Positions 13,384 to 60,916 of a DNA stretch of 64,000 nt are shown here, one piece after another. This stretch comes from Methanocaldococcus sp. 28A. GTDB lineage: Archaea; AGJL01; Methanococci; Methanococcales; Methanocaldococcaceae. The notes below the pieces were generated by a model, which was not told the DNA's origin, did not search any database, and saw only the letters and a list, made by a program, of their open reading frames with translations. The stretch lies in NCBI GenBank assembly GCA_049852185.1, contig CP187540.1; one strand, given 5' to 3'. Each line of letters starts with the position of its first letter. The first letter of the stretch is position 1. A program made the translations under genes and the position numbers.

Positions 13384-13738
13384 TCCCCTAACATTATATA
13401 AAGCTTTAAGAGTTTTTCAATAATTTCAAGCTTTTCAATAATGATTGCTATAAGTTGATTCTCTTTATAGCTATACAGTTCCTGCCTTATTATATGCAAA
13501 TAGTGAAAAAATTTTAATTTTAGATAGCTCTCTTTAAATTCCTCCCAATGTTCCTCATAATGCTTTCCATGCTCTAATCTTGGGGATAAAATATAATCAG
13601 ACGCATGCCTATAAAGCTTTAAATCCATCAAAAAGTTTCTAATCTTTTTGTTGAAATTTGCATATCTCTCTTTATTATGCCGTTTGAAATAGTTTAATTT
13701 TTCATATGCAAATATATACATTTATAGATTATCATTAC

Positions 13739-13753
13739 CAAAAAGTTTATATG
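13739..13753 (+). promoter_or_regulatory. Putative BRE/TATA promoter inside mini-element copy 1
   Basis: CAAAAAG-TTTATATG; conserved as CGAAAGA-TTTATATG in copy 2 (42819-42833, minus strand). Confidence 0.55.
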
Positions 13754-13784
13754 TGAATATATATAAGTTTTAAATAGAAATTAT

Positions 13785-13967
13785 AACTGCCCCAAATGCG
13801 GGAGTGAAATGGAGTCCCAAGAGAGTAGTCATAGCCAAATTTTAATTGATGGAAGGAGCTGGGGTCCCCTCGACAGGGGCAGAGACCTAAGCCAATGAAC
13901 CCAGAGGGTTGATGACGCCCAAGTCCAACGTGGATTTATATATAATTGTCCATGTTGGACAGACCCC
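13785..13967 (+). ncRNA. Candidate omega-RNA/sotRNA scaffold (possibly HgcC-related)
   Basis: GC-rich island in an AT-rich genome, conserved in blocks with copy 2, lying between the tnpB 3' remnant and the element right end. Confidence 0.55.
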
Positions 13968-14128
13968 AATCTTCTATATTTTCTCTAATATAAAACTCAA
14001 ATGCATTTAGCAGATATAGCATTCCATAATAAAATCTTGACACAAAAGTTCTCAAATCAAATTCTTTTAATGCATTTATACAGCTATCTAAAAAATGAAT
14101 ACATTCTTTTAAGTATGTATTGTTTAGG

Positions 14129-31350: not shown

Positions 31351-31841
31351 GAGTGTGTCTAAAATCAAGTAATATTTTATATATTAATTTATATATTAAT
31401 ACTACAAAATAAAAAAATATGGTAACGAAAAGATGGAACTCTAAGATAGATAATATAAACGAGATATTAGAAGTTTTTGATGAGATTATAGAGGATATTA
31501 AATTCTTATGGAGAGGGATATTTTTATAATTATGAAGAATACGATGACAAGAATACATTAAATAAAATAGTTAAATTCAACTACAAGCCAATAATAAAGA
31601 AAACAAAAAGAGGTAGTAAGAGCTATGGTGCTAAAATTAGGGATAAAATCTTCGATAAAAAAGAATATAATAAAAGAGGAATATACGAGGGTTTCTTCGG
31701 AGCTTTAACCAACATATTCGGAGATAAATTGAATACTTTCTTAACTTCGATTTCTATTACTCGAATCGCTATCTGGGTTTGCATATATTCTTTAATCATG
31801 TTGCTGAGGTATCGTATGTAAGTCCTATTTTAGACACACTC
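31351..31841 (+). mobile_element. Internally deleted DDE insertion sequence (IS5/IS4-like)
   Basis: Perfect 15-bp TIR GAGTGTGTCTAAAAT / ATTTTAGACACACTC; inside, a frameshifted ORF with a YNKRGIYEGFFG (YREK-like) motif near 31665-31700. Confidence 0.75.
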
Positions 31842-31849
31842 CTCTAAAT

Positions 31850-31903
31850 ATTTATCCATAAATGTCTATCTTTGTCTATAAAAAATTAATCTGTTTCAAA
31901 CGG
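31850..31903 (-). mobile_element. Left-end fragment of the IS607-like element (copy 3)
   Basis: Minus strand reads CCGTTTGAAACAGATTAATTTTTTATAGACAAAGATAGACATTT, matching the left ends at 13680, 42892 and 60738. Confidence 0.75.
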
Positions 31904-38175: not shown

Positions 38176-38824
38176 GTTATTTATACCGCACCGATCTGAT
38201 TTTAATAGGATATACTCCAAGCAGAAGTATAAGTTTCCATACCGAATCGGTCTTATTTTAATAAAAAAAGGAGGATATGTTGGGAAATTAAAAATGGAGT
38301 TTCCATACCGAATCGGTCTTATTTTAATTGAAATCAAAAAAAGGCATATATGAATATGATAAATTGATTTAGTTTCCATACCGAATCGGTCTTATTTTAA
38401 TAGTTTTTGATTTACCTTTACCACTCTTACCATACAATATTGTTTCCATACCGAATCGGTCTTATTTTAATGGTCTTATTTTAATTTAGCAGATAACAAT
38501 TTAAGCACCGCATACAACAGTTTCCATACCGAATCGGTCTTATTTTAATATTGCCAGAAAAACAACCGCCGTTTTTGAGTAATTATTTGTTTCCATACCG
38601 AATCGGTCTTATTTTAATAATCCATTAATATACATATTTTTTATTAAATCTTTACAGTTTCCATACCGAATCGGTCTTATTTTAATGAAGAAGTATTTAA
38701 ACAAACATTAAACACTGCAGGGGCATAGTTTCCATACCGAATCGGTCTTATTTTAATTAGCAATTTAGTAACTATAAAAAACACTGATTTAGTGGTTTCC
38801 ATACCGGATCGGTCTTATTTTAAT
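38176..38824 (-). CRISPR. CRISPR array: 9 full repeats + 1 degenerate terminal repeat; no cas genes in the window
   Basis: 30-bp repeat GTTTCCATACCGAATCGGTCTTATTTTAAT (+) starting at 38233, 38299, 38372, 38442, 38520, 38589, 38657, 38728, 38795; unique spacers mostly 34-43 bp; minus strand ends in GGAAAC. Confidence 0.97.
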
Positions 38825-42020: not shown

Positions 42021-42533
42021 ATGATAGTTCGAACTAAGATAGTTCAGATAAAAGATTATTTCATAGGGATGGTATTTAAAGATAATCAATTAGTTAGGAA
42101 TACAATCCCTCTAAGAAGAGAAGAGTTATTTAAATTTTTCAATGGAGAGATTAGTAGGGAGTGTAAATATTTAAGAGTGGCAGAAATTATATTAAAACTA
42201 TATCTTGGAAAAATGAATGATAAAGAAGCAAGAAAATTAATAGATTACAAATTAGAAGTCTCAGAATTTACAAAAAAGGTTTTAGATGTCGTTAAAGATA
42301 TAGAATTTGGAGAGGTATTAACTTATGGAGATATAGCCAAAAAAATAAACACTTCACCAAGAGCTGTTGGAAGGGCACTAAAAGCTAATCCTTTACCTTT
42401 AATAATCCCTTGCCATAGAGTTGTTGCTAAAAATTCTTTAGGCGGATATTTTTATGGTGTAGATAAGAAAAAATTTATCTTAGAGATGGAAAAAATTAGA
42501 AAAAATAGAAAAATAATAAAAAATAAACAGTAA
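42021..42533 (+). CDS. ogt: O6-methylguanine-DNA methyltransferase
   Basis: TYGDIA, SPRAVG, IPCHRVV. Confidence 0.93.
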   Translation: MIVRTKIVQIKDYFIGMVFKDNQLVRNTIPLRREELFKFFNGEISRECKYLRVAEIILKLYLGKMNDKEARKLIDYKLEVSEFTKKVLDVVKDIEFGEVLTYGDIAKKINTSPRAVGRALKANPLPLIIPCHRVVAKNSLGGYFYGVDKKKFILEMEKIRKNRKIIKNKQ

Positions 42534-42542
42534 AAAATAACA

Positions 42543-42792
42543 GGGGTCTGTCCAATATGGACAAATATAGACAAACGTCCATATTGGACTTGGGCGTCAT
42601 CAGCCTCATCTCCCTCTGGGTTCATCGGGAGCATATCATTGGTCTCCGCCCCTGTCATGGACATAAAAACCGTAAGGTTTTTAAGTTCTCGTCGCTTCGC
42701 TCCGAGAGAACCCCAGCTCCTCCCATCAATTAATATTCGATAATAACTGCCACTCTTGGGACTCCATTTTACTCCCGCATCTGGGGCAGTTA
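42543..42792 (-). ncRNA. Candidate omega-RNA/sotRNA scaffold, longer variant
   Basis: GC-rich; shares GGAGCTGGGGT, GACAGGGGC.GAGACC, ATGAACCCAGAGGG and TGATGACGCCCAAGTCCAA with copy 1. Confidence 0.55.
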
Positions 42793-42892
42793 TAATCCTC
42801 ATTTCTTATATATACCCACATATAAATCTTTCGGTAATGAAAATCTATAAATGTCTATATTTGTCTATGGAAAATTAAACAGTTCCAAACGG
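42543..42892 (-). mobile_element. Non-autonomous IS607-like mini-element, copy 2
   Basis: GG at both junctions on + strand; same ends, promoter and CPRCGSKMESQE remnant as copy 1; phased ATAGACA motifs at the left end. Confidence 0.8.
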
Positions 42893-42897
42893 CAATT

Positions 42898-43011
42898 TAT
42901 AGTTGTGTGCAAAATAAAATAAACTTTTATAAGGACAATTTGAATGCCTTCCATAATGAAGGCATTCACTAATTCCTTATTTTATTTAAAAAACTTTTGC
43001 ACACAACTATA
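42898..43011. repeat. Family A repeat
   Basis: Perfect 17-bp TIR, directly beside mini-element copy 2. Confidence 0.85.
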
Positions 43012-43027
43012 ATTAATTAGTGGGAAC

Positions 43028-60737: not shown

Positions 60738-60805
60738 CCGTTTGAAACAGATTAATTTTTCATAAACAGATATAGACATTTATAGATTTTCATTACAGAA
60801 AGATT
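60738..60805 (+). mobile_element. Left-end fragment of the IS607-like element (copy 4)
   Basis: CCGTTTGAAACAGATTAATTTTTCATAAACAGATATAGACATTTATAGATTTTCATTACAGAAAGATT; cut at its TATA box by a family-A repeat. Confidence 0.78.
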
Positions 60806-60916
60806 CATAGCTGTGTGCAAAACTATCTTAAATAAAATAAGGTATTAATGAATGCCTTCCATAAAGAAGGCTTTCAAATTTTCCTATTTAAAGTTTAGTT
60901 TATTTGTACAAAGCTA
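60806..60916. repeat. Family A repeat
   Basis: TAGCTGTGTGCAAA...TTTGTACAAAGCTA with GAATGCCTTCC core. Confidence 0.78.

Follow-up and report, generated by a model that had tools for sequence, protein, structure and literature searches.

A dispersed family of protein-less mini-elements in Methanocaldococcus, very probably derived from an IS607-family transposon, with the layout of stand-alone guide-RNA cassettes

Introduction

In a stretch of 64,000 nucleotides from the genome of Methanocaldococcus sp. 28A (contig CP187540.1; the whole stretch is referred to as the window), two short elements are found which encode no protein and share one layout from end to end. This raises the question of what such elements descend from, and whether the part they have kept is the remainder of a protein gene, a signal in the DNA, or an RNA. 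A preliminary description, made from the sequence of the window, took both for derivatives of an IS607-family element that lost its protein genes, and proposed that each copy could express a different guide RNA for a TnpB supplied in trans. Here, the two elements are compared with the remainder of the host genome (1.556 Mb in 2 contigs, 29.7% G+C, 99.94% complete), with 16 congeners, and with 40 genomes of the order.

Layout of the two elements

The coordinates of both elements and of their parts are collected in Table 1; the layout previously given for them, including every listed feature, was found again in the sequence. The copies share 82% column identity in a pairwise alignment, and the GC-rich region present in both is longer in copy 2 by insertions of 47, 8, and 8 nt; the 47-nt insertion consists of two hairpins, and the scaffold of copy 2 also bears the hairpin termed E. 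Each element begins with the left end CCGTTTG(A/G)AA, followed by phased motifs of the ATAGAC type, which in copy 1 are degenerate and in copy 2 read ATAGAC at 42868 and 42858 and ATAGAT at 42848, again with a 10-bp period. By analogy to the biochemistry of IS1535 and IS607 (PMC6188088), these repeats are presumed to be binding sites of the transposase TnpA. Behind them lie a TATA box and a 36-nt block whose translation is CPKCGSEMESQE in copy 1 and CPRCGSKMESQE in copy 2 (the Cys block); the GC-rich region leads to the right end, GGACAGACC, which is followed by CC.

Table 1. Features of the mini-elements in the window (positions are those of the window)
Feature	Position	Strand	Remarks
Mini-element copy 1	13680..13967	+	286-bp insert plus one shared CC core
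CC core of copy 1, two occurrences	13680-81 and 13966-67	+	
Left-end subterminal repeats, copy 1	13704..13729	+	ATATGC, ATATAC, ATAGAT at 13704, 13714, 13724; 10-bp period
TATA box TTTATATG, copy 1	13746..13753	+	A-rich BRE-like stretch upstream
5' hairpin P1	13786..13829	+	Outer stem 13786-92/13824-29, inner stem 13800-03/13815-18
Core RNA scaffold	13853..13965	+	G/C-rich helices and right-end hairpin
Predicted guide of copy 1, AATCTTCTATATTTTCTCTA	13968..13987	+	Flanking DNA; boundary from empty sites
Solo left-end fragment	31854..31903	-	About 50 nt, then another repeat
Predicted guide of copy 2, TGTTATTTTTTACTGTTTAT	42523..42542	-	
Mini-element copy 2	42543..42892	-	350 bp, both CC cores counted
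TATA box TTTATATG, copy 2	42819..42826	-	
Solo left-end fragment	60738..60817	+	About 80 nt, with remains of the promoter region

The termini read CCGTTTG... on the left and ...GACAGACCCC on the right, and no terminal inverted repeats are present at the element ends. The earlier statement that the elements lack such repeats and have only CC/GG in common at their junctions holds for the termini; it does not hold further inward, where the right end carries GTCTAT/GTCCAT, inverted copies of the left-end ATAGAC motif, in a subterminal position (in copy 2 spaced at the same 10-bp period), so that inverted copies of one motif occur in both ends.

Copies in the genome and in the order

A covariance model of the RNA (R1) was used to search the host genome and the order. 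It scores copy 1 with 191.5 bits (13780-13967) and copy 2 with 223.7 bits, and has nine matches above 150 bits in the host genome. Together with BLAST it revealed four further complete mini-elements on contig C1 (957096-957445, 638519-638848, 1265341-1265664, and 1425759-1426043) and three that are truncated at the 5' side. The one at C1:957096-957445 is 99% identical to copy 2 and lies at a different site; along with the open reading frame split by copy 1 (see below), this near-identity would speak for recent activity, as far as can be judged from sequence. Several copies are truncated, or broken up by other repeats. Left ends standing by themselves occur in the genome as well, and two of these are in the window (Table 1).

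Across the order, R1 finds matches in 23 of the 40 genomes, with all five genera represented. Gene-less mini-elements in other genera (L073-L081) agree with those of the host in both ends, promoter box, and scaffold. Even the 47-nt insertion known from copy 2 was met again in another genus, where its hairpin has changed in a compensated manner (CUCUCG/CGAGAG to CUCCCG/CGGGAG). One genome (G039) has 46 R1 matches, a few of which are reverse-strand echoes of the right-end hairpin, next to four intact tnpA genes and 11 TnpB matches; another (G036) has 12 R1 matches and two tnpA-tnpB units, one of them with a TAG stop in tnpA. Intact tnpA-tnpB elements co-occur with mini-elements in the genomes richest in the latter. 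The elements of the window are members of a dispersed family, and their resemblance is not due to chance.

Boundaries and mode of insertion

How these elements reached their sites can be read from loci lacking them. When copy 1 and its flanks were searched against the 16 congeners for empty sites, the matches to the left and right flank abutted with an overlap of 2 nt in ten relatives; the joint, read in G014 and G001, is ...TTATTATG-CC-AATCTTC.... Since the flanks overlap by CC and the joint holds a single CC, the CC at the junctions is one shared core dinucleotide and no target-site duplication was generated; the core is CC on the strand of the RNA and GG on the opposite strand. The insertion splits an open reading frame of 160 aa, which is intact in G014 and G001, and in a relative with the intact frame the flanks are 95-97% identical to those of copy 1. 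In IS607, crossover takes place over an identical dinucleotide without duplication (PMC6188088), and a single CC core, no duplication, and no inverted repeats are the signature of an IS607 serine recombinase. A classical MITE was considered as well and dismissed for want of both terminal inverted repeats and a target-site duplication.

Of 45 distinct left junctions in the family, 40 have G at position -1 and 30 have T at position -2, an enrichment which points to TG|CC as the preferred target; the corresponding place in the right end is CC|CC. The pair TGCC (target) versus CCCC (self) parallels the TGGG target versus TCGG reported for the IS607 element CboIStron (bioRxiv 10.1101/2023.11.20.567912).

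Full-length relatives and origin by deletion

The preliminary description left open whether a complete parent with the same ends exists; such parents are found in congeners and not in the host genome. A gene with a Resolvase domain is present in eight of the 16 congeners; in five relatives it is an open reading frame of 208-232 aa, adjoined by tnpB in four, and in G002, G005, G007, and G011 it lies directly upstream of a tnpB that bears the same Cys block and scaffold. In one such element (L033), the order is left end, tnpA, overlapping tnpB, Cys block and scaffold, right end. Its left end, TGCC-TTCCGAAACTGT...ATAGACAAATATAGAC, and its right end, ...TTGTCCATGAATGACCACGGTTGGGAAGACCCC, are homologous to those of the mini-elements, and its tnpA product (P0004) is recognized as "IS607 family transposase" by NF033518 with 237.4 bits (NCBIfam cut-off 110) and is composed of a MerR-type helix-turn-helix (MerR/HTH_17) and a Resolvase domain. 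R1 also matches the 3' ends of tnpA-tnpB elements (82-110 bits), so that the retained part of the mini-elements corresponds, as had been surmised, to the stretch between the tnpB 3' end and the right end, the latter included.

The host genome itself has an element that carries tnpB without tnpA (C1:1520552-1519080), which agrees with the mini-elements in left end, promoter region, Cys block, and scaffold blocks and encodes a TnpB of 444 aa (P0001). Compared with it, the mini-elements lack about 1 kb, and the deletion ends a few bases from the Cys codon; the tnpB-only element would represent, to go by its sequence, an intermediate form between parents and mini-elements. The comparison with the tnpB-bearing forms also bears out the proposal that the protein genes were deleted in such a way that the promoter came to lie some 30 nt before the RNA. 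A profile search with PF00239 gave no match to the Resolvase domain in the host genome, where the sole trace of tnpA is a remnant of 24 codons at C1:1012424, which shows that the genome once held a full element; the lack of tnpA bears on the present mobility of the mini-elements and not on their descent. The host's single Y1 tnpA belongs to a separate element at C1:829-831 kb. As regards structure and origin, the mini-elements are very probably non-autonomous deletion derivatives of an archaeal IS607-family element, the congeners' tnpA and the homologous ends shared with tnpB elements having substantiated the IS607 origin that was first proposed. Derivation from IS200/IS605 elements (as in PATEs, the protein-less derivatives of that family) was also tried and rejected, as the left end has phased direct repeats without a hairpin and the parents have a serine recombinase.

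The RNA scaffold

The retained part was analyzed in an alignment of 22 mini-elements from seven genomes, the helices being obtained with RNAalifold and a column scan. The inventory comprises P1, which overlaps the former Cys-Pro-x-Cys (zinc-finger) coding block and shows changes on both sides in six of its ten pairs, several G/C helices, an optional internal hairpin, and the right-end hairpin of 12 pairs (13923-34/13949-60), in which 97% of the cells pair. In the chosen structure, which was drawn from the same alignment it was tested on and whose rows are related by descent, 94% of the cells pair and 15 of 41 pairs are altered on both sides. None of 500 shuffles reaches its paired fraction, its count of both-side changes, or its covariation score, and its count of further pair types is attained by three. 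With the 3' partners displaced by 1-3 columns, pairing falls to 31-51%. Covariation, whose absence the preliminary description had listed among the refuting observations, is present.

The direction of the RNA is also apparent. A conserved G-U pair occurs in 19 of 21 rows; as the opposite strand would have a C-A mismatch in its place, the pair fits an RNA of the + strand only. Folding of the + strand compared with shuffles gives z values of -2.2 (copy 1) and -3.6 (copy 2); for copy 1 the reverse strand was compared too, and it folds no better than shuffles (z -0.96). In the G012 lineage, TGC CTC TGA (with a stop) replaces Cys-Pro-x, the reading frame is lost and P1 is kept, by the compensated change of TGCCCC/GGGGCA to TGCCTC/GAGGCA and, in a sublineage, to CCACTC/GAGTGG. 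Such compensatory changes after loss of coding within mini-element lineages argue for selection on the RNA while these elements were spreading. The observations mark the retained region as a structured RNA under selection and point to RNA in preference to protein or DNA.

The core of the fold allows more than one arrangement. A candidate for a terminal pseudoknot, in which the last bases of the scaffold would join a 5' segment, is GGG/CCC (columns 85-87/256-258); it can pair in 17-19 of 21 rows, its columns being nearly invariant with one G-U, and in an alternative CUGGG/CCCAG pairing 90% of the cells pair. The helices at columns 90-94/146-150, 148-151/206-209, and 77-80/92-95 overlap, with a compensatory change in each; they may form a base triple or belong to alternative folds. 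The overlapping helices surround runs of GGGG/CCCC.

Hairpins in transposon ends need not act as RNA, and those seen here could be a recombination-site structure for the transposase, as in the IS200/IS605-derived PATEs, with no RNA involved. The loop of the right-end hairpin indeed holds GTCTAT/GTCCAT, the inverted copies of the left-end repeats, and this stretch surely also serves TnpA. As the sole explanation a DNA signal is nevertheless very improbable: the covarying helices reach about 180 nt inward to P1, beside the promoter, the conserved G-U pairing would be lost as C-A mismatch on the other strand, the left end has no hairpin, the parents' recombinase is of the serine type and acts on double-stranded DNA, and insertion at the 2-bp core produces no duplication.

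It had also been suggested that the RNA might be HgcC, known from M. jannaschii, and the idea of HgcC or another family already in Rfam is prompted by the high-GC island within an AT-rich genome and by the link, made in PMC4615843, between HgcC and a right-end-like tetraloop of IS1341-type elements. At gathering score, however, Rfam yields nothing relevant, whether the window or 14 related loci are scanned; the only match in a relaxed scan of copy 1 (E <= 10) is HgcG with E = 0.9, and the six sub-threshold matches of HgcC (RF00062) genome-wide all lie elsewhere, one of them beside an unrelated IS605-type tnpB. The HgcC identity is refuted at the level of Rfam models, and the chance that a family already in Rfam accounts for the RNA is negligible.

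Promoter and predicted guides

Nineteen of the 22 mini-elements have a TWTATATR box, which lies around position 67; its distance to the TGCC block downstream is 29-34 nt in 18 of them and 18 nt in the remaining one. The box is lacking in the other three. Promoters of M. jannaschii are reported to have the TATA consensus TWTATATA, with the start 23 +/- 2 nt past its 3' edge in 126 of 134 cases (PMC2699501). Applied to the two elements of the window, this spacing puts the predicted starts of transcription near 13777 in copy 1 and near 42795 in copy 2, with P1 following 5-9 nt downstream.

The predicted guides had been placed correctly to the nucleotide, with AATCTTC... starting at 13968 and TGTTATT... 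at 42542. That of copy 1 is antisense to the split 160-aa open reading frame, and transcription would be expected to run through it; in the flank of copy 2 a run of six T begins 5 nt into the predicted guide and might cause an early end of transcription. Ten right-end flanks were searched as guides against the host genome, allowing up to two mismatches over 16 nt. Behind a right end, all ten matched only their own flank, and no second genomic site with TGCC was found; the other matches are AT-rich near-misses or paralogous repeats, none with the TGCC motif. Some guides match another repeat beside which the mini-element had landed. For the copy at C1:1425757 a tRNA was considered as target, and none was found.

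The proposal of a distributed guide library finds no support in this search, since the matches of the guides are confined to their own flanks or to another repeat beside which the element landed; with no second genomic target, a library aimed at other loci is unsupported, and selfish retention is the likelier role.

The candidate TnpB partner

If the RNA is used in trans, it requires a TnpB. In the host genome, the tnpB whose scaffold is most similar to that of the mini-elements is a truncated pseudogene (C1:352 kb, a frame of 240 aa; 82 bits with R1), while the scaffold of the intact TnpB, P0001, has diverged (36 bits). None of the 13 TnpB homologues examined has the canonical RuvC Asp-Glu-Asp triad: the residue aligned to D361 of ISDra2, the RuvC-III Asp, is Gln in all 13 and lies within the motif (D/N)RQ(L/F)V, whereas the RuvC-I Asp is kept in 12 (Tyr in one) and the RuvC-II Glu in all. 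With Gln in this position throughout, cleavage by this TnpB clade is not assured.

Consequently a further reading has to be weighed, in which the gene-less, promoter-driven cassettes serve a non-cleaving or otherwise altered RNA-guided DNA-binding protein. Their natural guides would mark their own insertion sites, which could, for example, recruit the serine transposase or silence the split or the empty allele. The uniform Gln fits this, as do the score of P0003, 87.6 bits against the NCBIfam guided_TnpB cut-off of 100, and the report that TnpBs linked to serine recombinases have archaea-specific altered catalytic sites and that inactivated TnpBs have regulatory roles (PMC10691335). The same work argues, though, that conserved rearrangements of the catalytic site usually or often keep activity, and TnpB here may be active via such a rearranged site. 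Further, the RuvC-I and RuvC-II residues are almost completely retained, tnpB still resides in mobile IS607 units together with tnpA, unlike domesticated TldR-type genes, and the guides have no second TGCC-flanked match in the genome. Binding without cutting is altogether improbable.

Proposed mechanism and present activity

The features described can be combined into the following scenario. An internal deletion would have removed tnpA and about 1 kb of tnpB, leaving the left end with TnpA-binding repeats and BRE/TATA promoter, the whole omega-RNA scaffold directly behind it, and the right end. A TnpA serine recombinase acting in trans would move the mini-element, with crossover at the CC core within a TG|CC target. 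The promoter would drive synthesis of a scaffold RNA of about 190-250 nt which is read on into the flanking DNA, the latter being the guide; TnpB, also in trans, would load this RNA and recognize the restored empty site by TGCC and the match to the guide. The locus emptied by excision would be cut and repaired from a sister chromosome, and the mini-element be retained, which in this way would parasitize both TnpA and TnpB of an autonomous element. Methanococcales have many genome copies per cell, which would favor repair from a sister copy. The model for this scheme is the IS605 element and the IS607 IStron, for which excision by TnpA, cutting of the empty site by TnpB, and repair from the sister copy are described (PMC10055086; bioRxiv 10.1101/2023.11.20.567912). 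Transcription of the mini-elements, loading into TnpB, cleavage, and homing are all projected from this analogy and from the sequence features above; seen over the whole family, retention through use of the RNA in trans is the reading to be preferred and may be held with moderate confidence.

Its most serious rival takes the mini-elements for inert relics, decaying deletion products which spread while TnpA was present and which inherited a fold that is idle, at least here. In the host genome much agrees with this, as tnpA is absent, the tnpB copies are broken or diverged, several mini-elements are truncated or interrupted by other repeats, the promoter box is lost in three of 22, and the putative TnpA motifs of copy 1 are degraded. 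Mere inheritance of the fold sits poorly, in turn, with compensatory changes that arose within mini-element lineages after coding was lost (the G012 type), with a promoter box kept in 19 of 22, and with the greatest numbers of mini-elements being found where intact tnpA-tnpB elements exist. Idle relics are hence a rather unlikely, though by no means a trivial, account of the family. Activity of the retained RNA at present, in this particular genome, is doubtful, given that tnpA is missing, the nearest scaffold is on a truncated tnpB, and the scaffold of the intact TnpB has diverged.

Relation to known systems

The full-length relatives resemble IS607, IS1535, and the IS607 IStron of C. botulinum in that their TnpA is a serine recombinase with an N-terminal MerR-type helix-turn-helix. 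Typical of the IS607 family are also the lack of terminal inverted repeats and of target duplication, the subterminal repeats in both ends, a 2-bp core shared by the two junctions and the target, a target motif at the left junction that differs by two bases from the terminus of the right end, and, in the parents, a guide RNA which spans the 3' end of tnpB and the right end. Unlike the bacterial examples, the copies in the window encode no protein and their host is an archaeon; their core on the RNA strand is CC (motif TGCC) where that of the bacterial examples is GG (TGGG, AGGAG), and the Gln in the position of the RuvC-III Asp sets their TnpB clade apart from those examples.

A close precedent is provided by the PATEs, which according to Meers et al. 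(PMC10055086) "often encode omega-RNAs" usable by TnpB in trans; VNG_R0052 of Halobacterium has been described as a transcribed noncoding RNA derived from a PATE (Gomes-Filho et al., PMC4615843). As in PATEs so described, the ends are fused, the genes are lost, the region of the guide RNA is kept, and both transposase and nuclease are needed in trans. PATEs, however, depend on a Y1 transposase, which moves them in single-stranded form, and their ends are palindromic hairpins; the mini-elements are of serine-recombinase origin, with phased repeats in place of the left-end hairpin and an archaeal promoter directly before the scaffold. The concept has been published for IS605 PATEs; the mini-elements are its archaeal IS607 variant. 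In a literature search of limited reach, no description was found of IS607-derived, promoter-driven guide-RNA mini-elements, nor of this family in Methanococcales.

As for the RNA itself, the omega-RNA of ISDra2 is depicted as a multi-stem scaffold of just over 100 nt overlapping the 3' coding region of tnpB (PMC10097598). The scaffold of the mini-elements likewise ends at the right end, with the predicted guide taken from flanking DNA; it has no similarity to the ISDra2 RNA, as given there, in sequence or at the level of Rfam, and differs in the extra P1 in the zinc-finger coding block and the optional 47-nt module of two hairpins. The sotRNAs, sense RNAs overlapping the 3' ends of archaeal IS1341-type tnpB genes in elements of the IS200/IS605 type (PMC4615843), have a counterpart in the layout of the tnpB-only copy at C1:1520552-1519080, whereas the RNA of the window, in contrast to the sotRNAs presented in that study, stands alone without tnpB.

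Significance

With the mini-elements, the notion that a guide RNA can be encoded apart from its nuclease is widened from IS605 PATEs of bacteria to IS607 elements and to archaea of the hyperthermophile type. They outnumber their protein-coding parents, one genome having 46 R1 matches (a few being reverse-strand echoes) as opposed to 11 TnpB matches. They also amount to a clean natural experiment, with exact boundaries, a predicted TGCC motif, a promoter fused to the scaffold, a covarying RNA model absent from Rfam, and a TnpB clade whose catalytic site is unusual. Should the RNAs indeed be loaded in trans, the family would show that the guide RNA by itself can be the object of selection on a transposon, and it would offer candidate thermostable pairs of TnpB and RNA.

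The TnpB C-terminus and the RNA scaffold

All 13 TnpB homologues (P0001-P0003 and those of loci L030-L066) carry (D/N)RQ at the position of the DRD motif of ISDra2 (catalytic D361), and they have in common a conserved C-terminal tail of 60-90 amino acids (GG.GV...PNPNV...VY.V.NG), the coding sequence of which overlaps the RNA scaffold. The scaffold of some minis, copy 2 among them (see the table), contains an inserted 47-nt module of two hairpins; the module is likewise present in one tnpB-linked copy, where the C-terminus of the TnpB (P0002) is altered, and was found in another genus as well, where it bears a compensatory change.

Directly downstream of an unrelated tnpB of the IS605 type, the genome contains a weak match to HgcC (14 bits, E = 0.6). 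PMC4615843 connects HgcC with a right-end-like tetraloop of IS1341-type elements, a link with which the location of this match agrees.

Positions of features in the window and in the genome (contig C1)
Feature	Window	C1
47-nt module, copy 2	42654-42700	
47-nt module		632386-632472
47-nt module, locus L081 (genome G039, another genus)		
HgcC-like match		829308-829377
IS605-type tnpB		829441-829958
ORF of 160 amino acids	13380-14148 (-)	
CRISPR array, 9 repeats	38233-38824 (-)	
Palindromic repeat at copy 2	42894-43014	
Truncated minis		1512828; 1513106
CCGTTCTGGTT.TCCGCTAC repeats		1425757; 36384; 162405; 216179; 463941; 1281720
GTGTCTAAAATAGGACTTACAT repeat	~31810-31853	
Composite remnant		1012424-1012650

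Insertion sites, neighbouring repeats and remnants

Copy 1 interrupts a conserved ORF of unknown function after ...FYIRENIEDW; the uninterrupted form is present in two relatives (G014 and G001). Between copy 1 and copy 2 lies a CRISPR array, the repeats of which matched CRISPR-DR13 at 37-41.5 bits in an Rfam scan of the window.

The left end of copy 2 is adjoined by a palindromic repeat of ~118 bp with the ends ATAGTTGTGTGCAAAA...TTTTGCACACAACTAT, which may correspond to the palindromic element that Suyama et al. (2005) reported; ~20 or more copies exist in the genome and many more in relatives, and a truncated mini (C1:1513106) is broken up by this repeat. The members of a second repeat family open with CCGTTCTGGTT.TCCGCTAC, a sequence resembling the left ends of IS607-type elements; in one case the repeat sets in precisely at the core of a mini's right end, creating a head-to-tail junction in which the core is common to both. 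A further repeat, starting with GTGTCTAAAATAGGACTTACAT, occurs in the window, where one copy follows a solo left end, and at six other sites in the genome; at C1:1512828, a truncated mini likewise has similar sequence behind its right end.

The second contig, C2 (10,393 bp), consists of 2.67 units of 3,896 bp, repeated with 100% identity; most probably, the assembly turned a small circular plasmid into a concatemer. The contig contains an ORF of 970 amino acids and a short piece of TnpB (amino acids 343-379), the latter adjoining a stretch that resembles the promoter region of the mini family's element. On C1, a scrap heap of remnants joins tnpA codons 1-24 to a tnpB tail and scaffold. At ...TGATGACG|CC this scaffold is severed, and a second copy begins there with its left end; thus, one element inserted at G|CC into another element's scaffold.
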